From: Trypanosoma brucei
Lineage: Eukaryota
Direction: 5' to 3'
Assembly (NCBI GenBank): GCA_000002445.1
Contig: CP000069.1
Span: 288,001 to 352,000, forward strand
DNA length: 64,000 bases
A model generated the notes under the pieces. The model saw only the letters and a program-made list of their open reading frames with translations. It was not told the origin of the DNA and made no database searches. Both the position numbers and the translations under genes were made by a program. Shown in pieces: positions 9,814 through 64,000 of this stretch. Position 1 is the stretch's first letter. Each line of letters starts with the position of its first letter.

Positions 9814-10194
9814 GGCGACCCCCTCGATAGCGCTAGCATGTTTGAAAGGGAAAGCGCAAAGCACCCAAGCATGTGTGCAGCATTTGGTTCCGTGAGTGGT
9901 GGAAGGGATGGAGTAAGAAAACGGAAGAAAACAACAAAGAGGTGAAACAGGTTAGTCATAGCTCAATGCCAAATTAAGTAACATAATGAGGGAGGATTTG
10001 CGGCGGTAAACACACCCTCAGCACCGCACGCCAGTGCGCACAAAGTTAGAATTCGCGCACAACAAACGCATGGAGCGTTGATAGACTTTTTTTTAAAAAA
10101 AAAGAAAAGAGGCTAAAAGTACGAATGAAACTAACGGATGCAGGAAAGGACAGCGACTCATCGGGAACGTCGAGGGGTGTCGCGAGACAACTCT

Positions 10195-10764
10195 CTAATT
10201 CTTACCAGCGGTGGACTTCGCCTTTGTCTTGCCGGAAGCAACCCTGGCCTTGCGTGCAGCACGGGCCTTCTCGACACGCTTTTTGGCAGCTGGCGTGCTG
10301 TCCACTTTCTTAGCGTTCTTGAGAAGCTTCTTAAGTGCAACCTTGTGCCACGAGACGGGGTTCTTTTTGTCGTTTTCGTCGAAGATCTTGCGTGCCCAGT
10401 AGGCGCGAGACCGCTTGGCAACACGCAGTTGGTAGCGCTCGAAATCAGTCGATTCGGCAAAAGCCTTCTTGGCTGCGATGCGGACAGCAGACTTTGTGGC
10501 GGCGTACTTCTCAAGGACCTTCTTCGACTCGAGCGCCTCCTTTAGTGCCTTGGTGCTGCAGTTACGAGAGATGGAGACACAGAACTTCAGAGGCTCGACG
10601 TTCTTTAGGTTTTGCACGTGACGCCACATCTTTTGCTCGCAAGGATTCTCCACTAAGACGCGGTTGGCGTCAACGATGTCGACTATCACACCGACACGGT
10701 TCTGCCTGGGACCGCGAAGGATGCGCACAAGGCGGCCAGCACGGATGTAGTTTGCCTTCACCAT
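10195..10764 (-). CDS. RPL14: 60S ribosomal protein L14 (L14e) with a Lys/Ala-rich C-terminal extension.
   Basis: The N-terminus MVKANYIRAGRLVRILRGPRQNRVGVIVDIVDANRVLVENP is the L14e KOW-like fold signature. The Lys/Ala-rich tail is typical of trypanosomatid L14. Confidence 0.8.
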   Translation of the reverse strand: MVKANYIRAGRLVRILRGPRQNRVGVIVDIVDANRVLVENPCEQKMWRHVQNLKNVEPLKFCVSISRNCSTKALKEALESKKVLEKYAATKSAVRIAAKKAFAESTDFERYQLRVAKRSRAYWARKIFDENDKKNPVSWHKVALKKLLKNAKKVDSTPAAKKRVEKARAARKARVASGKTKAKSTAGKN

Positions 10765-11468: not shown

Positions 11469-13256
11469 TCAAACCATTGGAAGCTCCAGGAAGGTGATAG
11501 AAGCGCCTGTCATTAGAAGGCTTGATGTGTGCAGGGAATCGTACAGAGAATATGTTTCATACACATAAAAGGCCACGTTAAATCCCGTACACGGGTGGAT
11601 CCGGTCCAGAGTACTCAGCGACACCAATGCAGCCCCTATTGGTACCGTGTCTCCATCATATGGACGTACCTCTGCGAGGTTCAGGCGCAAAAATTGCTGA
11701 CATTTCGCACCAGGCCACTTCCATAGCTCAAGTTCATCATCCCACTGAAGGCTTCCACTCGCACTTTGATATTGGGGCTGCGTTTCACTCGTTACCACTT
11801 TCCAACCCTGTTGATCTAGTAGTGTAATACTCACTTGAAACGCCGATGAGGCGCTCGCAGCAAATTCAGAAACCATTGGAAAGCCACGAATAGTCCCGAG
11901 CCGTAGAATGCACCGGCATGTTTTCTGCGAAACGTCTACCGCTGGCGCATCAAAAGGAAGCATTGTAACACCACTTTGTGGACCCTGCGAATGAGCACTG
12001 ACCGGTTGCACCCCTTGGGTAGATGAATCGGCACTCACGGGGTAAACCATGCTGTTGCCGTTGAGGGCGCCAACGATAGTGACAGCCTCAGCAATGAATG
12101 GTGTACCGTCTTCCAAGTCATGTGTTACCGCACCTCGTGAGCCATTCTTGTGCCTCTGGACGCTAGGCCGGAAGACAGGGAGAAGGCTCAGGAGCAGTGG
12201 AAACTCATCCGAGGGACTGAAGTGCCTATTGGTAATACACGCTGCGTTAAGCCAGTAGTGATACGGCGTATCTATGGCATTTGGTTGAGGGGTGGAGCTA
12301 TGGACATTTATGATAATTGGCGCAGAAACGGGCCTGGGCCCGTTAACAAGAAGCTGTAGGTGCAATTTTTTCATACAAGCACATTCGCCAATGGTCCACG
12401 TGGCAGTGAAGTATGCACGTTGCTGAGGGCGCACTGTGACGACATGAGCTGGTTCTACAGAGATGTAAGCACAAGCGTCGTGCAAGGGCAGCAATTGCAT
12501 TGCGAGCGCTGTATCAACTGTAGTGTTCATAACAGAAATGACATTGGTAACAACGTAGCTTCCCTCATCGTTGAGCATAAAGGAAGGAAAATAGAAGTCT
12601 AACGTGGAGACCCGGACCGACCCAAAGTCATACTCCAGTGGGGTGATGCCGTCCTCACGACGACCATCCCACTCACTGCTACGGACCTCCACCTCTGCAA
12701 TAGCGTACACCGTCTCGGAATCAATTGCGGCTTGTGTTGGGAACAGGTACACAGGGTATTTGGTATAATGCTGGTTCTCTCTCAAAATGGCAGTGCTGTT
12801 GAGCATCCCCACGCCATAAGTTACGTGACCCTCTTCTCCCCCAACAACCTCCAGCACCAACATCAACCCCTGAGAGCTAGATATGTTAAAGCAGGCGGCA
12901 TCGCTACAATTCGCGCTATCACCACTGGTACTAGCAATGCCATTTCTAATCTCTTCAACGTGCATGTGACGCGTGTCGTTGTCATCCCAACCGACGCCTA
13001 TCCAGCCCGGGTTGGCCGAGATGGGTTTAAGACTCGTCCTACCTACGTGTACAGACTCATTTACTACACGAATACCAATGGGCCGATGAGATCCCCATTG
13101 TTTTCGTACTCGCGCCAACCTCAGAGTTACCTCTTCCACTGTGTCGATGAAAAGGAGGCGGCTAATGTACAGTCTGTACATTTTCGAGTTAGTGGTCCAT
13201 GAGCATTCACACTGAGACACGGACGAAATCTCAGGAGGGGATGCAGCATTCATCAC
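11469..13256 (-). CDS. Hypothetical protein of 595 aa with no recognisable domain. It is probably lineage-specific.
   Basis: This is a long, clean ORF co-oriented with the PTU. Its composition is complex rather than low-complexity. A purine-rich plus-strand tract at 13430-13480, which is polypyrimidine on the minus strand, lies upstream. Confidence 0.6.
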   Translation of the reverse strand: MMNAASPPEISSVSQCECSWTTNSKMYRLYISRLLFIDTVEEVTLRLARVRKQWGSHRPIGIRVVNESVHVGRTSLKPISANPGWIGVGWDDNDTRHMHVEEIRNGIASTSGDSANCSDAACFNISSSQGLMLVLEVVGGEEGHVTYGVGMLNSTAILRENQHYTKYPVYLFPTQAAIDSETVYAIAEVEVRSSEWDGRREDGITPLEYDFGSVRVSTLDFYFPSFMLNDEGSYVVTNVISVMNTTVDTALAMQLLPLHDACAYISVEPAHVVTVRPQQRAYFTATWTIGECACMKKLHLQLLVNGPRPVSAPIIINVHSSTPQPNAIDTPYHYWLNAACITNRHFSPSDEFPLLLSLLPVFRPSVQRHKNGSRGAVTHDLEDGTPFIAEAVTIVGALNGNSMVYPVSADSSTQGVQPVSAHSQGPQSGVTMLPFDAPAVDVSQKTCRCILRLGTIRGFPMVSEFAASASSAFQVSITLLDQQGWKVVTSETQPQYQSASGSLQWDDELELWKWPGAKCQQFLRLNLAEVRPYDGDTVPIGAALVSLSTLDRIHPCTGFNVAFYVYETYSLYDSLHTSSLLMTGASITFLELPMV

Positions 13257-15442
13257 TAATTCACGAATGTCCTTTGCAGCTCTGCTCTATCGTATGTATT
13301 ACCGTTGCTCTCCTGATTCGAATCCCTTTCTCCCTCCTCGCCTACTGACCCCACTTTACGTCCTTCGTGAAGGGAAGTATCGCAGGGTCACAACTGGCAG
13401 CTGTGCCAAGCGTCAGCTCCGACTGATATCTTGAAAGAAAATCCGTCCTGTTGATACGTAAAAAAAATGAAGGGATAAATTGTTAATTGAGTGTGTGTCA
13501 CAGAAACATGTGAACAATCCAACACGTACATGTGCTTCCATTAGCGGATGCCGTTCATGCGGAGTCGTCATTTTCACGCAAAAGTAGCAAGATGAGTTGC
13601 TGGTAGTGAATGGTGAATGGTAAATACAACAGCGCAGTTAAACCATTGGTGAGACGCCACACCGTTCCACGCGTGCAGAGAATGTTTGTGCCCAGAGCAG
13701 GGGGAACAAACGGTAGATGAACGTCACTATATTACATTCTTAACATCCACCAATCATATTGTCGTTAAAACGGCACTGGTGAAGGTGACAAAACGACCAG
13801 GTTTTCTATGGAAAGGGACGACACGCCAAGACCAGTGTCGCAGGGACTCACATTCCTCTTGCCCAGTCTCTCGAACGAACATGACGGAGAATGGCATAAG
13901 GAAGCGTGGCCCCAAAGGTTGATGCATGAAACTAGGAGACGCCAATGAAAAAAAGAGAGCAGACTAGAAACCAGGTGGTTACAGGGAATGAGTGAGAGCG
14001 ATTGTTCCTGTGTATTAAACCCGCGTGCTCAATGTCGTTAGATGTGCCTACCCGCCGATAAACGCCAATAACGGCGACAATTCCGTTAGGATGCCAGACA
14101 CAAGTGTCCACGAGCTACCACAGCACAAAATTATGCAGGGCATCAAAAGCGTGATATGCTTTCCGTTCAGAAGCGGAGGCTTTGAGGGACCATTAGCACA
14201 ACCGTTTTCTTTTCCTGCCGATGCTGCCTTGTGCACACCAAAAGACAAGCGACTTCAAGGTGGTCTAAGGCGCAGCCATAACCTCTGCAGATTTTATGGA
14301 GTTGTTAAGGGTGCATGCCGCCCCCTTCCCTTAACCCCAACTAAAAGCAGGGGTATACTCCAGAGTCCCCAGAAGTTTGCAGTAACGGTGGAGATATCCG
14401 AGTGCATGAGCACTATTCTCTTCCTGAAGAGGACCCATAAACCAATCCATTCGCGTCAAAAGAGCACGCCTAGATTATGTAAAACACCTCCAACTTGCGC
14501 ATACGAACACCTCCATATTATATAAGAGGTATGGACACATCATCAACTCTGGATTCACGCCGGCAGATCCTAACGAGAGAAATTCATCACCAGAGACATA
14601 GCAGGACCGATCCCACGCACATCACTTCCCCCCTAGTTCAGTATAAACTAAACAGAAACATTACGAGAGCGCATTACTATAAAAACGAAAATAAATACAT
14701 GTGTTTTGTCACATAAACAGGAATGAAGAGAGATGTCCGGAAGTTCGCTCAGCCTTCGGTGTCAGGTGGCTGAGGCAAAACCGGGTGTGGTACTGGAGCG
14801 CGGGGACAAATACGAACACAAGTACGCTCTGACACTTTATCGGTACTAAGGGAAGAGGGAAAGAAGACCACGTTTGAGTGCATGTAATCAAATGTACAAA
14901 CATTACCTCAATCCTCACGAATAACCCACCCGCCGGCCATTTGCAGCCCGACAACAACCCCTTTAGAAAAAACAAACAAACAGCGAAACGAGTCTTCCGC
15001 GTGCGTTACTACTAACTCCCCACCAACTACCATGAAAAGAACCGCATGTGCTACGACTGCGGGGAGCAGTCAGTAATGCTTGCGTGCAGTTTCACACCTG
15101 CCATGGTCGCAGCCCATGCCCGTGTGGGGATCCCCCCTCGAGATTACCGCGGACTCAAGACAGTCATCATTCGCACAAATTTCGCACGAGTATAGGTGAT
15201 AGGTCCATAAAAGCGAGACGGGTCTGAAGGGAAATTCTTTCCAACTACTGATTCTCACATATCCTCCATTTCAAACCCCAGCGTCCACGAACGATCCACT
15301 TGCACGCAGAATATGTGAAGAGTTCATCTTACCGAAGCTGACAAACGACCGGCGTCTACAGGGGCAATAACACAGGGTACACTCCCCGGGACATATACTA
15401 CATTCGCCGTCCACGATTTCTCTACCGAATTAGAGGCAACGA

Positions 15443-47030: not shown

Positions 47031-50000
47031 ATGCCACTTTACTGGTTTCTATTTTCCCTCTTTGATATTCTTCTCGAAGACACAAGATTTCACATACGAA
47101 TAATACCACACATTACCGAAAATATGTGCCGGCAGGAAGGTGGCGGAAGAGGATGTGTGTACCCTCATGGAAACTGCAGGCGGAACCTTACCGCAAGGAG
47201 CCCTGCAAGGCGTTACAGCATGTACAAGCACTTACCTGTCATTACTGCTATATCACTGCTACACTTGTTGCCTTTGCTACTCATGTGGATGCCACCTGTG
47301 TGCGCGGATGACAGTGCTGTGACGGTAAATGTGCTATCCATGATGTACAATTCGGAATATTACGTTGAGAAAGTGAACGCCATCAATGCCGGCTTTGACG
47401 CATCACTGAGTGCCCACGGTTGGAAGACGGGCTCCGGTGCGACAATATCTGTCATCCGTCCCCCATCGTACAACACCACAGCTGAGGACATATTTCAGCT
47501 GGGGGCGAAACAAAGTGAAGGGAAGTTATTAGTTGTATTCGGGCCCCTGGGTACTGACCCTGTCGTTTGGGTTCGTGATAAACTAAAGGAAAATGATCTT
47601 GTTGCCATCGCTCCTATTGCGTACTCCAGTGAGGTCCGTGGTTTTAATCCCCACCTCTATTCAATAAGTGTCGAACCCAATGCTGAGCTCCTCGCCCTCA
47701 TTCGATACGCTGTTGTTTATCTGGGTCTGCCGCGTGTGGGTTTGATGTATGCGAAGGGTAATGGGTTTGACAAGGAGTCATATGAGTTTACCATGCGAAT
47801 AATGGAAATGATGGGCCGCAAGCCATGTGGAGTGTTCGCTGTGGAGAGCAGTGGGGGTCGGGACGTCTTGGAGGGTGAATTGAATACCAAGTGGGGGCAA
47901 TTTGTTGCTACACGTCCGCAGGCTGTACTGCTATTTTCGTCAATCGCGGATGATACCACCGGGTGGTTTGTCAAGAAGATAGCACAGGACAACCGCACTG
48001 TGGACATGTACCTGCTCGCCCCTTCCAGTTTTCAACATTTTCTGATCAAAACATGGAGCGATGCGCTGGTGTCACTTAATCGTACGTTCACTCCTGGACA
48101 GCTGATCACAACTGGAACAGTGCCACTCGCTAGTGACAATCGGTCCTCGATGGTTCGGCACTTCCAGCGTGACATGGACAATTACCTGGATACAAACAGT
48201 GACTGGAAGGGCTTTGCGAAACCTGAACATTACCTTAAGGACGACAAATTAGGGGAGATGATGGTGTTTGGATGGCTTGCGGGAGAAGTTCTGTTTGAGG
48301 CCCTAAACAACGCTCCACAACTGACAAACCGTACTTCATTCATGGAATCTCTGTACAAGCAGCGTCGCTACGTGATTGATGACTTTGTGGTTGGTGACTT
48401 TGGTGGTGAGTGCGATGAGGGCGCTGCATTACAGGGTGCCATGTGTAATTGCAATCAAGGTGGCAGCATGGCGCATATGAGAGTTGTTGATGACAGCCTC
48501 AGTTTGAAGCCTATGAACAGCGCCTCTGTGACGTGGAGTGTATCGGAGTGCTCAAGTGCTAATGTGCGGGTGAGCGCACCGTTAATCGGACTGTATGTAG
48601 TCCTTACGGATGATAAAGTTGCACAACGTGCGAGCATGAGGTGGTCGTTGGGCGCTCGGAGCCTCGAGGAAGCGGATGATGTTGATAAGAGAATATTTTT
48701 TTACCCACTATACGCAGAGTCAGGAAATGCAGCGAAGACTTTTGAAAAAATTCGCGACACGAAGGCTGTAGCTGCAGTTCTTGGTGTTGTTACCGCTGAT
48801 ATTCTGAGCGTGCCGAATATGACTTTCATTGGTACTCTTCCCCTGTCCCCCCGGTTGAACAAGTTCTGGAGAAACGTGATCCATCTGCAACCGCTACTTG
48901 CGCAGCAGCTATATGTGCTTGCTGTATACCTCTCCAACACCTCTTCCATGGGAGTGAAGGCGCTTGTTCGCGGGGGTGAAGCATCTGAGGTTGTAGACAC
49001 GCTTGATAAGTCATTGGTTACGTTTGGTGTGTCGCTTGATTCCAGTAAGACACTTGGTGATGATGACCCAATGTCGTCATATCTCTCGGGTAATGGAGAT
49101 GTGTTTTGTATTGGACTCACTCCCCCTGACGTTGCTGCGGTTGCGCGGCACCTTCAGACCCACCTCAGGGCCCGTGTATTCGTTCCATTCAATGACATTT
49201 TGTTGTTTTACCAGGAGTTTGTGGCTGCATTTAATGCGAGTAAAGAGTCTATTGCCAGCTCAGAGCGGCTCCTATTCGCGACGAGTTTCCCACACTGGGC
49301 GGAGAAGAACACGAAATCAGATATGGTTGCGAGATTTCATCGCCATGTAAATGAATCGCATTGGGATCCACTAACGTTCCTGGGCTTTGCTACCACTCGG
49401 CTGCTTCAGGTTGTTATCTCCAATATGAGGAAGGTGAATGCAGAGCTGCTGGCAGACCGCATTTACACGGAGTCCAACATCAGAGTGGATGACGTGCGAT
49501 TTGGACCCTTCAGTGATGCGGAATGTGTTTCTGGTACGAGTGTTTCGGCAAATGAGTGTGCCTCAAACTTTGGAGCCACAAACATTTCTGTATGGTCGAT
49601 GGCGCGTGTGCTGAATTCAAGCTTGCCCAGAACACAGGTTGGGATGACACCGTCTATGGACTATGTTATTCCGCGAGAGGGTCAACTCACACAGTCACAG
49701 ATAGCTGGAATAATTTCTGGGTGTGTATCCGCCTTGTTATTATTTATTGCCCTTGGTGTGTTCCTACACATCTCCCTGCGGAACGCTCGTAACAACAACC
49801 GTGCACCCAAGGAACCAACGGACCCCGTGACACTAATATTTACTGACATTGAGAGCAGCACTGCGTTGTGGGCTGCACACCCTGATCTGATGCCCGATGC
49901 CGTCGCCGCGCATCATCGTATGGTCCGTTCACTGATTGGGAGGTATAACTGCTACGAAGTCAAAACTGTTGGGGATTCGTTCATGATAGCGAGTAAGAGT

Positions 50001-50864
50001 CCTTTCGCTGCCGTCCAACTCGCACAGGAATTACAACTGTGTTTCTTGCATCATGACTGGGGAACAAATGCAGTTGATGATTCTTACCGTGAGTTTGAGG
50101 AGCAGCGTGCGGAGGGAGAATGTGAGTACACACCACCAACCGCGCATATGGATCCTGAAGTGTACAGTCGTTTGTGGAATGGCCTGCGTGTACGTGTTGG
50201 AATCCACACCGGGTTGTGCGACATCCGACACGATGAAGTGACGAAGGGATATGACTACTATGGGCGGACTCCAAACATGGCAGCAAGGACGGAGAGTGTA
50301 GCAAATGGTGGTCAGGTGCTGATGACGCATGCGGCGTACATGTCGCTGTCAGCTGAGGATCGTAAGCAAATTGATGTCACTGCACTTGGTGCTGTCGCAC
50401 TTCGCGGTGTGAGTGATCCGGTTAAGATGTACCAGCTGAATACCGTGCCTAGTCGTAACTTTGCTGCATTGCGGCTGGACCGCGAATACTTTTTTGATGA
50501 GGGCGAGGATGGCACGACAACCTCCACAAGCGACCACAGTTCTTCACGTGCGGAGCTGAGTGAATCAGCTCAGATAATTGCAACTGCACTACAGTCGCTG
50601 TTAAGCACGTTCAAGACAGCGCATCGTGAGAAGTTGTTGCTGCCGTATTGTGAGCGTTGGCGTGTGCCTCTTCCCCGTAAAGCCGCATCCGAGTGGGATG
50701 ACGCCTACTGTGAGGAAGTGGTGCGTCGCATTGCAGTTAAGGTTGGGCGTGTCGCTGACCATGGCGCTCATAGTGGAAGTGAGTCGTCAAGTACGCAAGG
50801 CAGTTCATCAATTATTATCGTCCCCTTTTACGACCCTTGCTACCGTGAAATGTGTTCTTTTTAA
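47031..50864 (+). CDS. GRESAG4: Receptor-type adenylate cyclase, GRESAG4 family, copy 5, at the array edge. Its C-terminus is divergent.
   Basis: This 1277-aa ORF has a chimeric ectodomain: VDDSLSLKPM from cassette A joined to NSAS...FFYPLYAESGNAAKTFEKI from cassette B. Its private substitutions are GFNPHLY, TLPLSPR, IPREGQ and RYNCY. The C-terminal PFYDPCYREMCSF replaces PFYDMHLQEY where array homology ends near 50823. Confidence 0.9.
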   Translation: MPLYWFLFSLFDILLEDTRFHIRIIPHITENMCRQEGGGRGCVYPHGNCRRNLTARSPARRYSMYKHLPVITAISLLHLLPLLLMWMPPVCADDSAVTVNVLSMMYNSEYYVEKVNAINAGFDASLSAHGWKTGSGATISVIRPPSYNTTAEDIFQLGAKQSEGKLLVVFGPLGTDPVVWVRDKLKENDLVAIAPIAYSSEVRGFNPHLYSISVEPNAELLALIRYAVVYLGLPRVGLMYAKGNGFDKESYEFTMRIMEMMGRKPCGVFAVESSGGRDVLEGELNTKWGQFVATRPQAVLLFSSIADDTTGWFVKKIAQDNRTVDMYLLAPSSFQHFLIKTWSDALVSLNRTFTPGQLITTGTVPLASDNRSSMVRHFQRDMDNYLDTNSDWKGFAKPEHYLKDDKLGEMMVFGWLAGEVLFEALNNAPQLTNRTSFMESLYKQRRYVIDDFVVGDFGGECDEGAALQGAMCNCNQGGSMAHMRVVDDSLSLKPMNSASVTWSVSECSSANVRVSAPLIGLYVVLTDDKVAQRASMRWSLGARSLEEADDVDKRIFFYPLYAESGNAAKTFEKIRDTKAVAAVLGVVTADILSVPNMTFIGTLPLSPRLNKFWRNVIHLQPLLAQQLYVLAVYLSNTSSMGVKALVRGGEASEVVDTLDKSLVTFGVSLDSSKTLGDDDPMSSYLSGNGDVFCIGLTPPDVAAVARHLQTHLRARVFVPFNDILLFYQEFVAAFNASKESIASSERLLFATSFPHWAEKNTKSDMVARFHRHVNESHWDPLTFLGFATTRLLQVVISNMRKVNAELLADRIYTESNIRVDDVRFGPFSDAECVSGTSVSANECASNFGATNISVWSMARVLNSSLPRTQVGMTPSMDYVIPREGQLTQSQIAGIISGCVSALLLFIALGVFLHISLRNARNNNRAPKEPTDPVTLIFTDIESSTALWAAHPDLMPDAVAAHHRMVRSLIGRYNCYEVKTVGDSFMIASKSPFAAVQLAQELQLCFLHHDWGTNAVDDSYREFEEQRAEGECEYTPPTAHMDPEVYSRLWNGLRVRVGIHTGLCDIRHDEVTKGYDYYGRTPNMAARTESVANGGQVLMTHAAYMSLSAEDRKQIDVTALGAVALRGVSDPVKMYQLNTVPSRNFAALRLDREYFFDEGEDGTTTSTSDHSSSRAELSESAQIIATALQSLLSTFKTAHREKLLLPYCERWRVPLPRKAASEWDDAYCEEVVRRIAVKVGRVADHGAHSGSESSSTQGSSSIIIVPFYDPCYREMCSF

Positions 50865-52114
50865 TTGCTGGTTTGGAGGGTAGCAAGAGTCGCACGTCTT
50901 GATTGTTGTTCATGTTGTCGCCGTTGTAACCGGGGTGGCCACTCGGTGTTCGTGATGTAGAACCTCTATTTTTTTTTTTTTAAAGAGTGGTTATCGTTTT
51001 TTTTTTTAAGAAAATTTCTTTTTATCTGTTATTTAATTCTGCGTCGATGTCTCAAGTGTTTTCAATATCGCGCGTGCGCAACTATCGTTTACGATGATAT
51101 TAATTTCCATTCGTAACTGTGACATGAGCGCACCTACAAGTTTGAAATTTTGTAGATATGCGGTTGTATCAGTATGGCAAGAAATGTCATATGTAACAAA
51201 TGCAGCTTGTCAGTTGTCGTTGATTTCATTTTCCTCTCTTTGCTTTGTAGAAATGTGTATATGAACTTATCTGTGAATATGATGGTTTCCGGTGTTTTTT
51301 TTAAAATTACCATTGAGTAATTTTGTTTTTTGTTTCCAATTTGTGGATATTCTTTTTTTTTTCCCCTGCTTTACTTCTGTTGATGCTGTTTCGTTAGACC
51401 TTCTTTGTTGTAACCTGCAAGGCCTAATCTCCCGGCGGAATATGCCAGCATTTTATGCATTTGGTGAGTGGTCTGACGTCTTTTCCGGAGGGAGGAAATG
51501 GGAAACATGGGGTGGAAGGGTTATTAGGTGGTGATAACGTTTCTTTTTTCATTAATTTTTTTCGGACGTTTCCTTTGTTAAGGTAATGGTCTTACTTGCT
51601 CGCATGTGCGCTGTTGCGTTGAACTTTGCTTCTATACTCGTTGTTGGGTGTACCCGTATTTCTTTCTTTTTTCTTTGATGGTTTGTAAAGGGCGTGGAGA
51701 ATGGAAGTGGTATGACTTTTAGGAGCCGCTATGCGGGAGTGTTCTGGTGATTTACGTGCGAAAATGGGCACATATGCGACTGTGGCGTTCTGTGGTGATG
51801 TCTTCGCCCCTCTCGCATCCGCGTGGTTGTGTTAACACTTCGCCGTTACGTCGTGTAGTGCCCATGTGCGGGGTGATACAGTTGTTGCGGTGGCAAACAA
51901 TAGTTAAGTGCATGAGGGCGGGTGTAGAGAAAGACTTTCGTCGGGCAAAATAAGCCGCTGGGCTTCTTTAACGATGTGACGACCTTTCGATTTTTTTGCT
52001 GATGGGCAACTGTGCGGTTCCTCGTGCTCAATCAACGGATCACTGCTGTTGGTTGCTCTGCGTCGCTGCTGTCGTGCCTGCTTCCCCCATCTTTTGACTC
52101 GATGGGTGCTGGAG

Positions 52115-52133
52115 GTGTGTGTGTGTGTGTGTG
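52115..52133. repeat. (GT)n microsatellite left of the hairpin. The mirror-image (CA)n(GA)n lies at 52815-52841 right of the hairpin.
   Basis: Sequence reads gtgtgtgtgtgtgtgtgtg on the left and cacacacacacacacacagagagaga on the right. Confidence 0.9.
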
Positions 52134-52475
52134 GAGGGTTGTCTGATTTCTTTTAGCTTTTCAATGCTGCAGAGACAAACCCACATTTTTTTTGTTTCTC
52201 TTTTGCATAAATGAGATGCCGTGGAGACACTAAATGGCGACGTGTGCCTCCAACTGTCATGATGACGACTGTCATGTTCCGCCAATGCCTTCAGGTAGCC
52301 GAAATGTTTGGCTTTAAACAGTGTGTGCGTGTTTGTGGGGTGCGTGGGAACCGGAACTCCGGTGTCTCGGGGAAATGCGTGCCGCTTCTGATGAACCTTC
52401 GCCTCCCCCCGATAGCGAGGGAAGCCCGGTTCCCTCCGTCCACCGCAACGGACTCTTTTACTTGCGTATTGTCGA

Positions 52476-52598
52476 ATATTCACACGAGGGAACTGAATTG
52501 GGTTTCCGTCAACTCCGCCTCTACAACTAAACTCGTCTGTGCCGCACCTCCAGAGGCGGGGTTGACGGAAACCCAATTCAGTTCCCTCGTGTGAATAT
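52476..52598. repeat. Near-perfect inverted repeat forming a hairpin. Each arm is 47 nt (52476-52522 and 52552-52598) and the loop is 29 nt. There is a single mismatch, which becomes a U-G wobble in the plus-strand transcript.
   Basis: The left arm is ATATTCACACGAGGGAACTGAATTGGGTTTCCGTCAACTCCGCCTCT. The reverse complement of the right arm is ATATTCACACGAGGGAACTGAATTGGGTTTCCGTCAACCCCGCCTCT. The same peptide YSHEGTELGFRQ appears in ORFs on both strands (52321..52530+ and 52040..52726-). Confidence 0.9.
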
Positions 52599-55529
52599 AT
52601 ATCCGTCATTATGTATTTATGAATAGATGTGGCACCTTTGAATGTAAAATGAATCGGGTGTCCCATGACATGGAAATGGAATATTGCAACGGGTTTTTTT
52701 GGGAGCCGCCGGATTCTCCCGCCCAATTAAGCGGGAACTGGTGAGGCAAAAAGGCATTCGGTGCGGTGCCTTACGGTTGGGAAGTGGGTGAAGCCGTGAC
52801 GCCGCCGTAGCGTCGCACACACACACACACACAGAGAGAGACCACCAGGCACGGACATTTGGGCAAAAAAGGGGGCAAAAACGGTTCGTACCGCAGCAAA
52901 TGGGGGCCCATTTAGTTCTGATCGCACGCAGTTGCAAGCGTCGGTAATATAATATCTTTCTGCTTGTCACCGCGTTTTGAAAGGCCAGCGGGATGGAAGT
53001 ATTTGGAAGGAGAGGGGGGGGGGCTCTAAGAACAAAAACAACAATAACAAAAAAAAAGGATCTGCCACCGCGGCGGCGATTTACTCATTGTCAGCCCCGG
53101 ACAGGACTTGCAGGGATCCGCGCTTACGCTGACTAGGGGAAACGATGAGGCATCTGCAGCAAAATAAATAAATAATAATAATACTTATGGTTCCGGCAAA
53201 TTTGAGGGAAATCATCGGCAAGCCGAATGAGGAAGATGCCACTCCTCGTCATATACACTCTTTGGGTTGGCACCGCGGTGAGGGAAACATGGGAGGTGAT
53301 GGGGAATAAATCCGTTGCGTGCCACTTTACTTTTAGTTCCCGCTACCGCTTCTTTTATGGGTTACCCTATCGGATAATAATGAAGGTGTTGTGACAACGA
53401 TGTCCACGCAGCCTCTTCAGCTTACGGTAGTATCGGCAACTAAAGCGGAACGTTCGCAGAAGGACATGCATTTCCAGCAGGAAACCGTGCATGTCTCACA
53501 CGGCTGTGGCGTAGCCTTCGGAAATTTTTGTTACTTTTATGTTGTTGTTGTTGTTGGGGCGCGATAGAAATAGCCTCCGCAAAACTCGGAAAAGCCGGGC
53601 ATCTCCACTCAACTTAGTTTGGAATGCGAGGCTACACGTGTAGAAGGAGCTGAAAGGGAAGAAGTGCCTGTGGAAATCTTGTTGGTGTGCGGTAGCGGCT
53701 GATTTCTCACCCGCCCACTACTCGAAACCGGTTCCAAGTCCGCGTATCATCACACACACGCGGTTCCTACGGCCACTTTTTCCCCCTCCAGTTGCCGCTG
53801 GCAGTTAAAATGGCAGTCGTAACTAAACTAAGGACCAATACTTATGTATGTGTGTGCGTGTGTGGGAGTGTGGCAGGTATTTTCTAAAAAAAGCAGTAGT
53901 CACCCCCCTTTCTCTCACTTTCACCATTCCTCCTCATTTCCTCGCCGATTGTGTGGCACTGTGCTGTGCTACGCAATTCAAATCCATATGAGAAACCACC
54001 TTTTGATTCCCCTTCGCAAACATCCATCCATTGCTTTCAAGTCCTCAAGTGTTTGTTGCCCCCGCGGCAACGGGAGAAGTTTGCATGCGGGGGACACATT
54101 TCACGCGCCCAAATGCATAATTGTACGCTCCATTGGCTCCTGAACATCTTTGCCATGCTTTAGAACGGCAAAACACCATCCGTGAAACTGAGGCAGCCAT
54201 TATGAGCGAGTCGGCAGTAATAATAATAGTAATAATAAGAGCAACAATGATGCTATTAATGGCGGCGCAACGTCTCCACCCGTATTTTTTTTTTTTGTGT
54301 GTGTGTGTGTGCTAAGGCTAACAACAGCGTGTCAAGTAAATTCTTTTTAAGGTAGGATGGAAAGAAAAGGACACAAAAATGAGTACTTAAGAGGAATGAG
54401 TTACATTCGCCTTTTCAGCACATCATCCGTTAATTCATACATACACCGTCCACCCCCTTCTCCCAACGTCGTGAAAGACCCTACACCATTGAATAATAAC
54501 AACCCCAACAAAGAAGAAAAAGAAAAAAAAAACAGAACAAACGAACAACAACAAAAAAAAAACAGAATTAATATGATGGCGGCATGTTGCCGAAGAGAAA
54601 AATAGGATATAAATATATAAATATACAAATATAAATATATATGTGTTTTTTTCCTTTTGTTCGGGGCGGGGGTGGTGGAGGGGCTCTGGCGCTTTTTCAA
54701 GACCGGAAGCAACTTCGCTCCGTATATGGCCCGTAAAGGCTCTCATGCCAAATTCTCGCATGTATTATTGTTTTATTTTTATTTTTGGGTGGTGGGAAGC
54801 TTCGCACCTGGCGCCAGCACCGTCCGCCGCGCTGAAACTGATTATATTTATCGCCATTGTTTTTGTTTTTCATTTCGCTTTTAACCCGGCAGCACAAGCA
54901 CGAGGCAAAGAGAAAGAGAAAGAGAAAGAGAAAGGGAAAGGGGGCCTCTGATGGCGCGATAACTAATTTCACATGCGCTTGCAAAATAAGTCCCCCCTTT
55001 CCCACCTCTTCGCGGTTCTATCATATTCACCAACGCACTCAACCAACTGCCGGCATCATTCTCCTCCTTCTCCACACTCTTCCCATCGTAGTGGTCCCGC
55101 CCTGCATCGTCCGCAACATAAATGTGGATACAAAAGTGAGAGGCAATTTATTTATTTACTTTTTTCCCCCTCTCTTCTCTTTTCTTTTCTTTTCTTTTCT
55201 TTTTGTTTTGTTTTTTTTTAAATATTTTTTGCGTCCTTAAATCTATTCTCTTTAATTTTTTTTGTTTTTCCCGCCCCATCCATACTCCCGCATGATGGCT
55301 GGTCGTCTCCACTACGGTGTCCAACTGCACAACCCCCTCCTCCTCCTCCACCCTCAAATGCAACGAACAGACTGACAAACAAATACATAGACGTACACAC
55401 ATGCATATATTTTATTTTTTTTAAAAAAGAGGGGGGGGGGAGAGGGGAAGAAGAAAAAAAAAAAAAGGGAAAAGGGAAAAGGAATGAGAAACATTTTCCT
55501 TCCGATTTTCCGCCACGAGCTATGGATGT

Positions 55530-55859
55530 TTACATGACGTCTTCTTCATTTGGCCACACCTCTAACCTCTTATAAAATTCATATTGAGTTTCAATCACCT
55601 TCAGGAAACGTATATTTCTGTCCCTTGCTCCAACTACCTCATTATAACGTTTTTGATGTTCCTCCGTGAGACTTCCTACTGCAAGTTTTTTTTGCGACCA
55701 CGATTTCATTTCCTTTTCAAACTCTTCAATCTGCCGCTGGACGTCTCCTCGTATGATATCCATGTCTTGCTTCAGTAACGCGCGATGCCAAAGCCTTTCG
55801 GGGACGAAATCTCCCTGCAGAATTTCCTTCCGCTCCCCGTAATAGTAGTACACAGTCAT
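55530..55859 (-). CDS. Hypothetical protein of 109 aa. It is an isolated small ORF, possibly conserved.
   Basis: The ORF MTVYYYYGERKEIL...EVWPNEEDVM has complex composition and a charged, helical character. It is flanked on both sides by simple-sequence DNA. It is co-oriented with the downstream PUF gene. Confidence 0.45.
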   Translation of the reverse strand: MTVYYYYGERKEILQGDFVPERLWHRALLKQDMDIIRGDVQRQIEEFEKEMKSWSQKKLAVGSLTEEHQKRYNEVVGARDRNIRFLKVIETQYEFYKRLEVWPNEEDVM

Positions 55860-58800
55860 AATGTATTGTAATAAACTAAAAAAAAAAAAATCACCACCCC
55901 CTCCCTAAAAATAAAGAGCAACTTGGCGCATTTAAAACAGCAACACTAATAATAATAACAACAATAACAATAATAACAACAGCAGAATCGTTAGAGTTAT
56001 TTCTGTAATTTTCCACACCCCGCTCCATCAACATTCATTACATAACCCCGATGTTATTATTTCCCAGATGTATCTGGTGCTGACAGCACAGCGCGAATAG
56101 ATAAAAACAAAACAAAACATTACTGCCGTTAAAAAGCGTGGGCGGAAAGGTGGAGGAGGTTTTGTTCATGTGCCGCCTCCTCCCATCGACTCCATTAATA
56201 TGTTTTGTTGAAGATATGAATAAACCAACACACACACATACAGCACATACGCACGCATATATTTATATATATTTATATAAAGGTGTTGTGAGAAGAAGAC
56301 GCGCAAATCCGTAAGTTCCATGAAAACGCCGTGCTTTGTGTGAATATTGTTTATTGCTTTTATTGTTTATGTATATATATGTGTATATATGTGTGAGTGA
56401 GTGAGTGAGTAATTGAGTTACATTAATTCGATGAAAACTCCTCTCCTCTCCTTCCCTTCCCTTTTTATTTTTGTTTTGTGTAGGAAAAAACAAACAAACA
56501 AACAAACAAAAAAGAAGGGGAAAAGATGTTAACATTTTAAGGACCACCGGTGGGGATCTGGAAAATTTACCACATGTTAGTTGACTCTACGCGCCATTTG
56601 TTGTTCAACTTACCGATATCATTTCAAGCTCCCTTCCCTTCCCTTCCCTTTTTTCTTTTTTTTTTTGTGTGTGTGTATCTTTATATATTTATTTATTTAT
56701 TTCCTTTCCCATTTGGTTCACGTACTTAATGCAAATCTATTAGCTACGAAATGAAGAAATGGATCTTTTCTTTTAAAAAAAAATGCTAAAGAGAGTAGCA
56801 AAAGAAGAAGAAGAAAAAAAAAAGAAAGAAGAAGAGGATATACATATATATATATATATGTATATTTTAAAAAAAAATATATATGGAATGAGGGAAACAG
56901 CAAGACCATCTTTATTTATTTATTTATTTATTTATCGTTGCCTACGTTCAAACCCTGCCGTATGAAAGGGCGATATTCCAGTCAACAACATATTTTGTTT
57001 CTGTTTTTACTCCATTTCCACACTCGTTTGGTACCGTACGGGAAACACATAAATGCCGTAATGAATGGAGACAACAGAAGTAATAATAATAATAATATAA
57101 TAATATAATATAATATAATATAACAATAATAATAATGGTAACAAAAATAAAAAGAAGGAAAAAGAAGTGAGAAGGGATTTATAAATAGTATATATTTATA
57201 GATATCATATATTCATATATTTATAAAGGTTTTGATAGAAATTTGGATGGACGGAAGGGAAAGTTAAGAAAAAACAAAGCAAAACAGAACCTTCTCCCTT
57301 CAAAAACAAAAAAAACAACGGTGGAACATGACAGTTTAGGTCCCGTACGTGGCGTGAGTAAAGGAAACTGTAAAGTAGAAAAAGGGAAAAATAATTAAAA
57401 AAAAACACGCACACAAACAAACAAACAAACAAAAAAAACAAAGAAAGAAAAAGAAAGGTGAAAACACCACCGTTTCGTCGGTTATCATCGTTGCCATCAT
57501 TCATTCACTTATTTTATTGAGCTGTTGCTTTTTTTTTTATATTGTTTTTCAAAAAATATATAAATATATTTATATATAAATATTAATATATCTCGTACAA
57601 AAACAAAATGAAAAAGCAAGCAAACAAAACAACTAAACACAAAAGCACACAAGTACAAATATTTATATAAATATATGTATGTTTGTGTATCAAAGCGTTT
57701 ATTATTTCTTTTATTTTTATTTTTTTTTTAGAAGAAAAGAAAAATCTGAAGACACTTCTCCTCTTCTCTACCGTGTTATTAATGTTGTTGTGTTGATGTT
57801 GCTACGCATCTCATCTTCTATAAATAAATCCCTCTATTTCATTTAATTTCCCCACATCTTCGTTTATAAATTTAAATAAATAAATAAATATATATATATA
57901 TATTTATCTATTTTTTTTTCTCCTCCTCCTCCTCCTTTTTTTTCTTCCTTCTAAAATCCTTTGCTTTTCGTTTGTTTGTCATGGTACAGTAGCAAAAGTA
58001 AAAATAATAAAAGAGTTCACAGCACGGGGATGAGAGAAGAAACCGAAGAGAAAAACGAAAAAAAAAAACAAAGCAATAAAATTGGGAAGTAAAATTACAA
58101 AGCAATAAAAGTAAAATATAACAAAAAACAAAAAACAAAAAACAAAAACACACAAAGAGATGAAATGAGACGAAAATGCCTCCCACTTCTCGTGTAGTTG
58201 AGGCGAAGTGTAATGAAGACTCAACTACACGCACAATAATAACAAAAAAAGAAAAAAAAAGAAATTTAGAAGGAAGTGCAGAATAAATTACGAGAAACAA
58301 ACTCTGTTATTCATCTTTAACTTCCTGGTACCACAACAGTAACAATAACAATAACAATAATAAAATACATACAAATACACATACAAATACACACGCACAC
58401 ACAAAAACACAAGCACGAACACAGACGCATATATAAATAAATACATTTATACACTTATACATTAATATATATATATAAATATAAAGAAAACCTGTTGCAA
58501 GTTCAAAGGTGGGTGTAGGCGCAAACCATGCAAAAACACATAAACATAAACATAAACACACACACACACGCATTGGTATTATATTGTTGTGTGTTGCATA
58601 ATGTTGCGAAACTCATACAAAAAAAAGGAAAAGAAAACAACAACAGCTCGTTGCCCACTCCCATTCCTATTGTTTCTTCTATTTTATTTTATTTTATTAT
58701 TATACTTTGTTTCCTTTCCCTTTCCCCCCTTTCCTCTCCTCCGAACATTTTCTATAATATATAAAATAATATGAGATAGATGAAAAACAAAACACGCACA

Positions 58801-61499
58801 CGCAAACTAAAACTAAAACTAATAATAATAATTTCATTTTGTATACGCAATGTTTGTTAACGCATCTTTTTTTTTCTTCTATTGCTTGTTTTTTGATCAT
58901 TTTTTTTTCCTTTTTTTCCTTTTTTTTTTTTGGGGGGGGGGGAGAGAGAGAGAGGACGAATATAACAGAAATAAAAATAAAAATATCCCCCACTTTTTGT
59001 TGTTTTTTTTTCATTTGGTTGAAGTGACGTGGCACCCGAAACAAAAATAAAATAAAATAAAAAATCACGGAGGCTCATCGCGCAGAAACGTGTCGAATCA
59101 CACGCAACGGTTGTCCGGAGGGGAATACACACACAAAAAAAATGCACGAAATAAAAAAAGGCAAAATAAATAAACACACAAACACACAAACACCGCTCCT
59201 CTCTTTTTATCTCGCCAAACAAAAAAAAAACAATTCCGAAGCCGATGGAAAAGTTGTGCAGAATTATATAAATATAAATAAATAAATATATATATATATA
59301 TATTAAAAAAAACACAGCGCGCGCCTTCTAAAAATAATAATAATAATATCATTAATTATATTAAAATATTCGTTTTGTTTATATCTTATATCTTATTATT
59401 GATCTTCGCTTCTTCTTTTTTTTTTTTAAAAGAACGTACACCACCATTGCATGCTTTCTAAACTCTTTTGCCCGCTCTTTTACATTTTCTCTTCTTTTCT
59501 GTTTCTATTTTCCCCCCCTTTTTTTAAAAAAAAAAAACAAACTAATTTGCAAAATTTCCCTTCACAGCGCAAAGTTACAAGCATAAGAACTTATATATGC
59601 CAAAGAAGGATTGATAATAATAACAATAATAATAATAGCAATCATAATAACAGTCACAACAAAAGGGCGAAAAATAAAATAAATGAGTAAAAAAAAAAAC
59701 AAAAAACAAAAACAAGAAACAGAAAAGGAAAAGAAAAGGTAAAAGAAAGAGGACGTGTGTGTGTGAGAGAGAAAGAGTTTGTGTGAGGAGGGACAAAAAG
59801 ATATTTTGATGGAAAAAGTAACAAAGTAACAAAATAAAAGAAGAAAAAAAGAAAAAGAAAAAGAAGGATGAGGATGAGGATGAGGATGAGGGAAAGGGAA
59901 AGGGAGAACACACCTGTGAAGTAACTTACAAATAAAACACACAAAATAAGTACATAGACTTACAAATTCACACATGAAAGAAATGATGAAAAGCAACGGC
60001 CTTTGGGATGTGTAAACGAACTTTACTTGACGTACTCGCATCCACTCAAAGAGGTTTTTTTTTTTAAAATTCATTCCGTTATTTCGCCTCATTTCACTTC
60101 TTTCCAGTCTTTTTTCTTTTTTTTCTTTTCTTTTCTTTTTTTATCTTATCTTATTTTTTTTGTGTTTGTGTTTTCTCTTTTCAAGAATTCTTCTCTTGTT
60201 GTACCACTAATAATAATAATAATACTAATTACGGTAATAATAATGACGACCATAAAACATTCTCCTCTAATTGATTCCTTTTTACTCCCATTGCAAAGGA
60301 ATATATATATATATATATATATTTTAAAAAAAAAACCCTCTTCCTTGGGTTTTGAGGGGGGGGGGAAAGGGATAAAGTTGGTATTGTTGCGGTGGTAAAT
60401 AAAAATAAAATTAAAGAACAAACAAACAAACTCTCTCTCTCACTCACTCTTACTTACTTACTCACTTACTCTATTCTTAAAGCTTCTCAGTTTTATTTTT
60501 TTCTCTATTATTTTTATTTATTTATTGGCATCTCCACATGCACTCCCGTTCCTTTATCTTCTATTTTTCTTTTTTTTTTAACTTTATATATATATATATT
60601 CTCTCTCTCTCTCACACACACACACACTTGTGCCAACACTTATTCATTTACTTATTTATTTGTTTTGTTGCATTATCCATATCCCCACTTTAGTTGTTGT
60701 ACCCGGTCGCGTTTAAAAACTTTACAAAAATAAAAAGAAAAGAAAAGAAAAAAAAAGAAGGGAGAGAGAGAAGAAGAATAGTGAGAAAATACAATTTTGG
60801 GATCACGCGGAAAATCAGAGGTTTTTTTCTTCAAAAAAAAAAATTCAACTCAATTCAATTCAATTCGTTTCTTACTTTTTCTTGTTATTTTTATTGTTAA
60901 TGTTTTTCCCCCCTTTTTTTCTTCTGTTTTTATTTTATTTTATTTATCCGGTTGATTTGCTTATTCACTTATTTGAGTTTTACTTTCACATGCGAAGCAA
61001 ATTAGAAATAAAATAAAAAACAAAAAAAAAAAAAAGAGAGCACAGCAAAGGAAATAATTAAAAAAACAACAACACACAAACACACACACACACACACAAC
61101 AAGCAAAGAAACAGACAACGAATAAGTAAATAAGCCACACGGAAACACAAAGACTCGTACTTTCGAAAGGAGAAAAAAGAAAACAAAAAAAAACAAAAAG
61201 AAAGAAAGAAAGTCAGAGAAAGAGAGAGAGTATTAAAAATGGAGCAAAACAAAAAGGCACAAGCACCAACCAACCAACCAACAAACAAACAAACAAACGA
61301 AAAGCAAAAAGAACAAAAGCACTTGACATTATGAGGCCTTATGTTAACATGAACCAACACGACGCCTTCATTTATGCCAAGTACTTAAAGATCCTTTTAT
61401 TTATTTAATTATTTATTCACTTTTTTTTACTTTTTTTTATTTATTTTTTTATCTACTTTTTTCCTTCTTCCTTCTTCACTTTCTTTATGCATCTGTATA

Positions 61500-61542
<43 letters not shown>

Positions 61543-61759
61543 TTATTGATCTGCTTCATATTTCCGTTTATATGTTCACTTGTCTCTGTGTCAAAGAACT
61601 AAAAAAAAAACAAACAAACAAAAACACACAAAGAAGCAACGGATGCACAATAAACTCCACCGCACCCTTCAAACAAACAACAAATAAAACAACAGCGATA
61701 ACGCCACCCTTTGCTGCAAATGCCTCACTACATTTACACTTATATTATATTATATGTTA

Positions 61760-61791
<32 letters not shown>

Positions 61792-62720
61792 CAATAGTAA
61801 TTACTATTACCATTATTACTATTTATGTTATATAGGTAAATTCATTTGTTTGTTTGTTTGTTTTTTTAACACAAACACGCGTCGTAAGATAATAAAAAAC
61901 AATAATAATAATGATAACAGTAATAACAGTGACATTCATAATACTAATCATAATGAAAAAAGTGAGTAACAGTAGAGGAAAATGCGGACACGCAAACGTC
62001 AAGAAGCAAACAAAAACGAAAAAAAAAACTGGAACCGGAACCGGAACCGAAACCTAAACCCAAAACGCACAACATAAAAAAAGAGAGAGGCAAAAAAAAA
62101 ACAAAACAAAACAACAACAACAAAAGAACTAAACAAAAACTAAAACAACGATGAAATAACGGGAAACTGTTGGATGAAGAGAAGAAAAATAAAAGAAGGC
62201 GGTAAGTAAAGAACAACAACAACAACAACAACAAAGAAAACAACGTTAACTACCAGTAAATAACAACAACAGCACCAAACACCAGCAATAACGAAAAAAA
62301 AAAAGGGAGCGAAGAGGAAGTAAAAAAAGAAAAAAAAACCAAGAGAGAAGAAAAGGTCCCGTTCACACTCGAACTTATTGCTGCTCTTTTTTTCTTTTTG
62401 TTTGCTGTCCTTATTATGATTATTATTATTATTATCATCATCATCATCATTAGGGCTATCATCAGTTTTCTCCCTCTTCCTCTTTCTCTTCAATTATATT
62501 ATATTATTTCCCGCTCCCGTTCCCTTTACCGCTTCCATTTTCCCCATCTCCACTGTCCTCCAACCCAATTTCCATGAAAAGCACTTCAATGGCGCCCGCC
62601 CGCCCACCACCAGCAGCAGCAGTCAAAACTCCATGCATTTAACAGCGGGCTTAAAGCGAGCAAAACGAGTAATTACTTGAGCGATTAAAAACAGCATCAT
62701 GATAATAATTTATCACCGTC
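55860..62720. repeat. About 6.9 kb of low-complexity, microsatellite-rich DNA. Examples are (TTTA)n 56914-56935, (GAGGAT)n 59866-59890, (TA)n 61495-61542, (CAA)n 62212-62235, (ATT/ATC)n 62418-62451 and poly-G runs at 58924 and 60356.
   Basis: All ORFs here translate to poly-F/L/K/N low-complexity peptides on both strands. The region probably includes the long 3'UTR of the PUF gene and the 5' flank of the 109-aa ORF. Confidence 0.8.
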
Positions 62721-62721
62721 A

Positions 62722-64000
62722 TCATCCCTTCCTGCCGCGTTGCGTTTGCTTTCGTTTATTTGAGCGCGGGCCACTAATCACATCGACAGCCCTCTGAACG
62801 TCTGCTAGCGGACCCCTCACCGATCCGGCGGCGCTGGCGGGTGGTGGTGGTGGTGCCGGTGCGAAACTTCCCAATGAAGCCAAAAGCGCTTTAATGATTT
62901 CGACTTCTTGTGGTTTCATCTGCGGTGTTTCGCCAGCCGTACCGCTGCCATTGATGTTGTAATTGGTGGCTGGCCGATCCATAGGGATATTTGAATGAAA
63001 CGACGACTCGATGACGGAGCGACTGACATCCGCCAGACGGTCGGTGTAACGGTTCCCAATTAAATCCGCCTCACCCGCGTTGACGCCCCTTTCCTGCAAG
63101 TGGGTAATGATACGTTCCCTTGCCTGTTCCATCTTGGAGGCAATACGCTTTCCGAAGTTGTGTTTCATTATTTCAGGACTGAGTTTATGCAAAAGAAAAA
63201 GCAACTGAGCAAGCTCAGGACTAATGGGAAGCACATCAAGCATCGTCTGCACAACGTAGTTTCCGTATGAATTCAGGACGATGGTTTCCAATGCCGTGTT
63301 TTCCTGATACGGAGTAACAAATGCAGCGGCAGGCTGGATCATTAACCGCTGCTGTGGGTCCTGTTCCCCCAAAACGTAATCCATCCCCATTAACCTCGCT
63401 GACATCCCTGTGTTGATTGTGGACCTATTAAATAAGAATCGACACAATTCTAGCTTGGCGCTCGGCGCACACCCCTGCACAATTTTCTCCACCACGTTGG
63501 AAGCGAACTTGTTCGCGCATAGAAGTTCGAGGGCTGGTCCTGCACAGTGAGCGGCTTCATTAACCACGTGTCGCTGTGACTGCGAGTTGCACATGCTGAT
63601 GAGGTGAGTCACCACATAGTTTCCATAGGGATTTAGGGAGAGTTGCAACATGTGACGGAGTATTGCTTTTTGAGTTCGTTGCAGATGCACATTTATTGCG
63701 TGGTCCATACACTTCTGAACGACGCAGCAGCCGTGTTTATCGTTACAGACATCCACGGTGTCCTTCACAATGACATCGTACAGAAATGTTAGATCCTTCG
63801 GCGAGATGCATTGAAGCAGCTTTTGAATAACGTGACCACCGTTAAGATCCGTCATAAGCTGCAGCGTTCCACGCTGAAGCGCCCGACAAACTACTTGGAC
63901 TTCTTGACTAGAGCGAAGTGAATCAATTAACTTTTGTACAGCGTAGTTTCCATGCGGGGAGATGGCAACATCGCACAGGGAAGCCGATATATGATAGTCC
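62722..64000 (-). CDS. Pumilio/PUF-family RNA-binding protein. The gene is 5'-truncated by the window edge.
   Basis: It has multiple Pumilio repeats: HGCCVVQKCMDH, NPYGNYVVTHLISM, NKFASNVVEKIVQG and NSYGNYVVQTMLDVL. I translated the minus-strand frame by hand from 63856 to 64000 and found no stop. That stretch also encodes PUF repeats, SPHGNYAVQKLID and DLNGGHVIQKLLQ. Confidence 0.85.
   Translation of the reverse strand, partial: DYHISASLCDVAISPHGNYAVQKLIDSLRSSQEVQVVCRALQRGTLQLMTDLNGGHVIQKLLQCISPKDLTFLYDVIVKDTVDVCNDKHGCCVVQKCMDHAINVHLQRTQKAILRHMLQLSLNPYGNYVVTHLISMCNSQSQRHVVNEAAHCAGPALELLCANKFASNVVEKIVQGCAPSAKLELCRFLFNRSTINTGMSARLMGMDYVLGEQDPQQRLMIQPAAAFVTPYQENTALETIVLNSYGNYVVQTMLDVLPISPELAQLLFLLHKLSPEIMKHNFGKRIASKMEQARERIITHLQERGVNAGEADLIGNRYTDRLADVSRSVIESSFHSNIPMDRPATNYNINGSGTAGETPQMKPQEVEIIKALLASLGSFAPAPPPPPASAAGSVRGPLADVQRAVDVISGPRSNKRKQTQRGRKG

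Follow-up and report, generated by a model that had tools for sequence, protein, structure and literature searches.

The 64-kb stretch of Trypanosoma brucei TREU927 chromosome 6 analysed here (the window) carries five tandem plus-strand ORFs of 1274-1277 aa between 28005 and 50864, which encode receptor-type adenylate cyclases (GRESAG4) with periplasmic-binding-like and cyclase domains. GRESAG4 Tb927.6.760 has been described as a 5-copy array on chromosome 6 (PMC2854126). The last of the five genes (47031-50864, plus strand) marks the end of the plus-strand transcription unit, and its stop codon lies 1612 nt upstream of the inverted repeat that is the subject of this study, a hairpin-forming element at 52476-52598. 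To the right of this hairpin the ORFs are on the minus strand, at 55530-55859 (109 aa) and at 62722-63855, and a PUF protein is encoded on the same strand in what we call the PUF4-side unit; PUF4 is Tb927.6.820 in the literature. A DEAH helicase ORF and a phosphatase ORF, both exact matches to TREU927 proteins, are also present in the window. A series of plus-strand polypyrimidine tracts extends from 50963 to 52204, ending 272 nt before the hairpin, and minus-strand tracts are found on the right from 55493 down to 52861. The nearest of the latter (52861-52884, minus strand) is a predicted tract 263 nt from the hairpin and a possible trans-splice signal for a minus-strand RNA containing it. The cumulative T-A excess climbs to ~52500-52750 and then drops, which marks a local turning point of strand asymmetry. 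The hairpin sits at this turning point, within the convergent strand-switch region that follows the cyclase array. A previous sequence-only reading of the window had placed it in the same convergent zone, and the end of the plus-strand cyclase ORFs at 50864 with minus-strand genes beyond agrees with that placement.

The interval in which the hairpin lies is gene-poor and unusually long, at 11.9 kb (11.86 kb) from the cyclase stop codon to the PUF4 stop codon. Between the 109-aa ORF and PUF4, ~6.5 kb of it (56000-62500) is very AT-rich (GC 0.24-0.33), of low complexity and without a convincing ORF. At the other end, no similarity was detected between the 3' flank of the last cyclase gene (50865-51500) and the spacers that separate the other four copies, which places the end of the cyclase repeat unit no further than the last stop codon. 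Going right from the hairpin, the first well-conserved coding sequence on the minus strand is the 109-aa ORF (55530-55859). Its 330 nt are identical in four Trypanozoon genomes and its flanks carry indels; the ORF occupies 10001-10330 in both the GCA_003543875.1 and the T. b. gambiense loci and 1237-1566 in the T. equiperdum OVI locus. In the protein search it matched itself alone, with no homologue found outside Trypanozoon, and its protein cluster holds no TREU927 accession. On its sequence the 109-aa ORF looks like a real small lineage-specific gene, and the TREU927 record may lack it. A synteny search via PUF4 returned only the T. rangeli PUF4, on a 3.7-kb contig.

One annotated gene model overlaps the hairpin. 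The orphan ORF Tb927.6.810 (52040-52666, minus strand, 208 aa) contains the whole hairpin together with a (GT)n run. On the same strand, 52040-52726 is the longest ORF that spans the hairpin. This ORF corresponds to 'hypothetical protein Tb927.6.810' with 100% identity, its sole match among ~5.8 billion proteins. The statement in the sequence-only reading that no annotated feature accounts for the element was thus mistaken, though the gene model itself looks spurious, as discussed below.

A repeat search and direct reading of the sequence resolved the hairpin into three parts, none of which has an assigned strand: a left arm of 47 nt (52476-52522), a spacer or loop of 29 nt (52523-52551) and a right arm of 47 nt (52552-52598). 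The arms are 98% complementary (46/47 positions). The sole mismatch sets a T in the left arm against a G in the right arm, which is a U-G wobble in plus-strand RNA; in the folded minus-strand RNA it becomes A-C, one unpaired position. Coordinates, arm lengths, loop length and wobble were all exactly as first described. When the 123-nt unit was folded as RNA, the plus strand gave -90.1 kcal/mol (z = -14.8) and the minus strand -92.4 kcal/mol (z = -16.1), so that either strand folds at ~-90 kcal/mol with z ~ -15. As single-stranded DNA the unit folded at -57 kcal/mol. None of 200 shuffles of the 123-nt unit matched the folding energy of the hairpin, and within the 64-kb window the arm is present at these two sites only (up to 3 mismatches allowed; 0 expected). 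These results uphold the view that such a stem is unlikely by chance, and a chance origin of the inverted repeat is excluded. It is also the only inverted repeat in the window without low complexity, counting repeats of 22 nt or more whose arms lie no more than 300 nt apart; the others found at these thresholds are of AT- or poly-A/T-type low complexity.

The boundaries of the arms are sharp, with no extension beyond 47 nt. The suggestion that the hairpin is what remains of a larger decayed palindrome did not hold, since the flanks align no better than shuffles: the 100 nt outside the arms align at a score of 13, against a shuffle mean of 13.1. In shuffle-controlled comparisons of the wider flanks, mutual reverse-complement similarity came only from the GT/CA runs. 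These runs had been described as flanking the hairpin. They are real but some distance away: 343 nt separate the left arm from the end of the (GT) run at 52133, and 218 nt separate the right arm from the start of (CA)9(GA)4 at 52816. The (CA) run itself (52816-52833) has 9 units in TREU927 and more than 50 in T. b. gambiense (about 13062-13170), and the T. equiperdum OVI contig terminates at this repeat.

Searches for related sequences returned the hairpin alone. BLASTN of 50865-55530 against the window, which looked for a second copy or a target in trans, gave only the inverted match of the element to itself, and no second copy of the hairpin was found in the window plus 45 kb of related Trypanozoon loci (~109 kb in all). 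Exact-match scans of metagenome and prokaryote genome collections with the arm core gave 0 matches, as expected for a trypanosome sequence. No Rfam 15 family reached its gathering score. The only Rfam overlap with the hairpin was Leu_leader, at 30.8 bits where 50 are required, and this is a chance match driven by the hairpin shape. ARAGORN found 0 tRNA genes.

Related loci were identified through the 109-aa ORF in GCA_003543875.1, in T. b. gambiense DAL972 (FN554969.1) and in T. equiperdum OVI. Because the T. equiperdum OVI contig ends short of the hairpin, at the (CA)n run, the hairpin comparison comprises two reliable genomes (TREU927 and GCA_003543875.1) and one unreliable genome (DAL972). 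GCA_003543875.1, a chromosome-level, independent Trypanozoon assembly, has the same 47/29/47 hairpin. Across the strand-switch region, TREU927 and GCA_003543875.1 differ by 69 substitutions in 4666 nt (1.48%). Within the 123-nt hairpin there are only 2 substitutions (1.6%), 52508 G>C and 52566 C>G in the direction TREU927 to GCA_003543875.1. The hairpin is therefore not a conserved island, because its divergence (2/123, 1.6%) equals that of the region (69/4666, 1.5%). The two substituted positions are exact pairing partners, such that a G:C pair in TREU927 is a C:G pair in GCA_003543875.1. Since both hairpin substitutions sit on one base pair, the arms co-evolve. When placement of the 69 substitutions was simulated 2,000,000 times, all arm substitutions were Watson-Crick compensated pairs with P = 0.0009; given exactly two arm substitutions, the simulated chance of a compensated pair was P = 0.0036. 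The right arm and the inner left arm of T. b. gambiense are in the C:G state, as in GCA_003543875.1. The T:G mismatch is common to TREU927 and GCA_003543875.1, and the 29-nt loop is the same in all three genomes aligned.

On this sequence comparison, the arms appear to be kept complementary by one of two processes, gene conversion inside the palindrome or selection for pairing. A compensated pair is predicted by gene conversion too, and the comparison covers three genomes, one of them unreliable. The retention of a plus-strand wobble beside a compensated transversion leans slightly towards selection at the RNA level, with one event of each kind and with the caveat that every mismatch arising from a transition forms a wobble on one of the two strands.

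The T. b. gambiense DAL972 reference has a different form of the locus. There the repeat search reported apparent arms of 82 nt with 88% identity. A gap of 100 Ns (locus 13553-13652) begins within the last adenylate cyclase gene, in the part that encodes the C terminus, and the contig after the gap opens with an inverted copy of the right flank of the hairpin, the apparent extension being its first 82 nt (region 13342-13552). Over its outer 40 nt the extension repeats the right flank almost perfectly in inverted orientation. The ~30 nt that follow, which correspond to the outer portion of the true left arm, are garbled, with many mismatches. Mis-oriented reads typically leave such a pattern, and the 82-nt arms are unreliable as evidence of an ancestral larger palindrome. 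The DAL972 reference is probably mis-assembled at this locus, with the hairpin as the cause; the alternative is a genuinely larger palindrome that is hard to clone.

Published data describe transcription across the hairpin. Tb927.6.810 is among the genes less than 1 kb from a convergent region, its start lying 628 bp from the edge of the convergent strand-switch region (cSSR), a distance equal to its own length (Schulz et al. 2016, PMC4721952). The expression values are from stranded polyA+ RNA-seq of bloodstream forms, given as log2 RPKM over Tb927.6.810 (PMC4721952 S2 Data, S6 Table). Sense RNA (minus strand) was at -3.76 in the wild type, -0.69 in the J-null, -3.53 in the H3.V-null and -0.05 in the J/H3.V double null, and antisense RNA (plus strand, the direction of the cyclase array) was at -1.64, -1.01, -2.10 and -0.42, respectively (PMC4721952). 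In linear terms, wild-type RNA over the hairpin is very low, at 0.07-0.3 RPKM, and minus-strand RNA rises 8- to 13-fold without base J. These stranded data indicate that both strands across the hairpin are transcribed at a very low level. Minus-strand transcription normally stops before the hairpin, in a manner dependent on base J.

Convergent regions of this kind are established sources of small RNAs in T. brucei. All 49 of the 49 convergent units surveyed by Tschudi et al. (2012, PMC3447711) gave TbDCL2-dependent, AGO1-bound siRNAs, as did seven long inverted repeats (422-10,011 bp), and no miRNA-like species was found in procyclic cells. The hairpin locus is most likely one of two units in that survey: CTU21 (232.2-240.8 kb, 187 reads of 6.8 million) or CTU20 (171.4-175.1 kb, 420 reads of 6.8 million) (PMC3447711). 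The 48 listed units have a median of ~1,100 reads, which neither candidate reaches. CTU21 is favoured by the average gene-ID density and by the position of the hairpin at ~235.6 kb in GCA_003543875.1; CTU20 is favoured by the 12.2-kb cSSR at 167,386-179,608 of Reynolds et al., which resembles the 11.86-kb gene-free interval found here. The head-to-tail distances of the Schulz S6 Table fit neither unit. If the hairpin belongs to the cSSR at 167,386-179,608, its region yields 45 RPM of small RNA in wild-type bloodstream forms and the same in the H3.V knockout (Reynolds et al. 2016, PMC4721609). Tb927.6.800, Tb927.6.810 and Tb927.6.820 are unmentioned in the supplements of Reynolds 2016 and Kim 2021. 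Two chromosome 6 small-RNA hot spots 'with no clear features', DNK1 and DNK2, have 5111 and 4248 reads, are dependent on both DCL1 and DCL2 and are listed without coordinates (PMC3447711 Additional file 5). The proposal in the sequence-only reading that the hairpin is an siRNA source therefore stands in part. It fits the published facts for the class (PMC3447711) and the low transcription of both strands (PMC4721952), but the two candidate units are weak producers.

We suggest, with roughly even confidence, that the hairpin is a lineage-restricted inverted duplication whose rare read-through RNA is a Dicer substrate and a minor source of siRNAs. In this model, a small, Trypanozoon-restricted inverted duplication would lie in non-coding DNA between the GRESAG4 unit on the plus strand and the PUF4-side unit on the minus strand. 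RNA polymerase II would normally stop before or around the hairpin in a base-J-dependent manner, and because of this only rare read-through RNAs, from either strand, would contain it. Any such transcript is predicted to fold at once into an essentially perfect double-stranded stem of 47 bp, which TbDCL2, the nuclear Dicer, could cut about twice. The few siRNA species released from the stem would add to the known pool of convergent-unit siRNAs, and the arms would be held complementary over time through gene conversion or selection for pairing. Dicing, siRNA output and a role as by-product rather than as dedicated gene are what we propose for the hairpin. Two observations count against this model, namely the very low level of wild-type RNA over the hairpin (0.07-0.3 RPKM) and the below-median siRNA production of CTU20 and CTU21. 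A third would argue for a dedicated function over a by-product: a wobble that is kept while a transversion is compensated, with one event of each, is more natural under RNA-level selection than under unbiased conversion.

The same low RNA level, with almost no transcript crossing the locus, and the same weak siRNA output of the candidate units would be expected if the hairpin were an inert DNA palindrome that arose by fold-back or template-switch repair and was homogenised by gene conversion only, with no consequence at the RNA level. Concerted evolution of palindrome arms through conversion is well established generally, and the hairpin, with a divergence of 1.6% that equals the regional 1.5%, is no island of conservation. 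The long inverted repeats of T. brucei are likewise nearly identical in their arms, as Tschudi et al. remarked (PMC3447711). Conversion should, however, have removed the T:G mismatch, which the genomes compared still carry. Transcripts of both strands are detected, at higher levels when base J is lost, and any transcript must fold into the stem. We hold an inert palindrome to be possible but rather unlikely.

Selection on the RNA hairpin itself is a doubtful explanation. The hairpin would then be an entry site for TbDCL2, an RNase III, that aids termination or disposal of cyclase-unit read-through, or else a dedicated short hairpin-siRNA gene acting in trans. Its position would suit such a role: it is 1.6 kb downstream of the last stop codon, lies past the plus-strand polypyrimidine tracts and coincides with the turning point of strand asymmetry. 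The compensated transversion and the tolerated plus-strand U-G wobble point the same way, and we infer from its length that the 47-bp stem would hold about two Dicer products. The covariation is, however, a single event, and BLASTN found no target sequence within the window. Moreover, termination here depends on base J, with nothing that links it to the hairpin (PMC4721952), and procyclic forms lack any detected miRNA-like species (Tschudi et al., PMC3447711).

The remaining explanations are much weaker. The idea of a small foldback element, raised in the sequence-only reading, found no support. A miniature foldback or MITE-like transposable element, with terminal inverted repeats around a 29-nt core, would account for the sharp ends of the arms without an extended palindrome, and ATAT does occur on either side of a 43-nt inverted-repeat core as a possible target-site duplication. 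Because ATAT is itself palindromic, however, it is indistinguishable from arm sequence. The ~109 kb of Trypanozoon sequence holds no second copy, neither in the 64-kb window nor in the 45 kb of related loci, the hairpin is at the same site in all genomes compared with no empty site seen, and to our knowledge DNA transposons do not occur in trypanosomatids. A transposable element is thus very unlikely.

It is less probable still that Tb927.6.810 is a genuine protein-coding gene to which the repeat is incidental. The gene is annotated in TREU927, and the minus-strand ORF stays open across the hairpin in GCA_003543875.1 too. Against this, the predicted protein matches only itself and has no Pfam domain, the frame traverses the (GT)n repeat, and in GCA_003543875.1 it is not intact, because a 1-nt indel at 52186 shifts it and alters the last ~50 residues. 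In the part shared with GCA_003543875.1, 7/8 nucleotide substitutions are nonsynonymous, and all 7 substitutions that fall within the overlapping plus-strand ORF are also nonsynonymous there. Sense RNA over the model is 0.07 RPKM in the wild type (PMC4721952). For these reasons (orphan status, no Pfam domain, the (GT)n crossing, the frameshift and mostly nonsynonymous change) we treat this DNA as non-coding; Tb927.6.810 is most likely not protein-coding and probably a spurious annotation.

An assembly artefact, that is, an inverted duplication from mis-joined reads, is effectively refuted for the 47-nt hairpin: the DAL972 contig start after the 100-N gap does show that the region causes assembly trouble, but TREU927 and the independent GCA_003543875.1 have the same 47/29/47 structure, and the paired substitution between these two assemblies is not expected from an artefact.

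Among known systems, the convergent units (CTUs or cSSRs; PMC3447711, PMC4721609) resemble the hairpin locus in that both lie between two converging Pol II units. In both, the two strands are transcribed at a low level that is higher when termination marks are lost (PMC4721952). The siRNAs of these units are 22-25 nt long, TbDCL2-dependent and AGO1-bound (PMC3447711). The dsRNA of convergent units is thought to come from overlapping sense and antisense RNAs over kilobases, whereas at the hairpin one transcript is predicted to be able to fold back on itself. The long inverted repeats IR1-IR7 (PMC3447711, Table 3) share near-identical arms with the hairpin (0-14 mismatches; 1 in the hairpin). 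They differ in scale, with arms of 422-10,011 bp and kilobase spacers found in a genome-wide scan for large repeats, compared with 47-bp arms and a 29-nt loop here. The hairpin is about ten times shorter than the smallest of those arms and is absent from that list. By analogy, the hairpin would work most like these convergent-unit and inverted-repeat siRNA sources of T. brucei.

In the hairpin-RNA (hpRNA) endo-siRNA loci of Drosophila and the miRNA precursors of animals and plants, a single transcript folds into a stem that is cut by Dicer, and the hairpin could act likewise. hpRNA stems are usually hundreds of bp long, with identified targets, and miRNA precursor stems are ~22-33 bp and bulged; the perfect 47-bp stem fits neither class well. 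Rnt1-dependent fail-safe termination in S. cerevisiae and Dicer-assisted termination in S. pombe offer a second parallel, in that a stem-loop past the last poly(A) region could provide an entry site for an RNase III. Rnt1 recognises short stems with AGNN tetraloops, and the hairpin, unlike Rnt1 targets, has no AGNN-capped short stem. We know of no demonstration of RNase III-based termination in trypanosomes, in which termination has been linked to base J, H3.V and H4.V.

Were the hairpin only a by-product, the practical results would be that Tb927.6.810 should be treated as non-coding and that the T. b. gambiense reference is probably mis-assembled here. According to Tschudi et al. (PMC3447711), it is an open question how Pol II terminates where polycistronic units end, as is the origin of the dsRNA of convergent units. 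A short, perfect, strain-conserved hairpin at a point of convergence would offer a simple route to dsRNA from a single transcript, and it can be tested directly, being easy to mutate. Of its features, the paired substitution and the exact position at the turning point would merit a specialist's attention. The compensated G:C to C:G change and the retained plus-strand U-G wobble are compatible with a selected RNA element. If the hairpin is indeed a selected TbDCL2 site or a hairpin-siRNA gene, it would be the first sequence-encoded, RNA-structure-based component of trypanosome transcription-unit boundaries.
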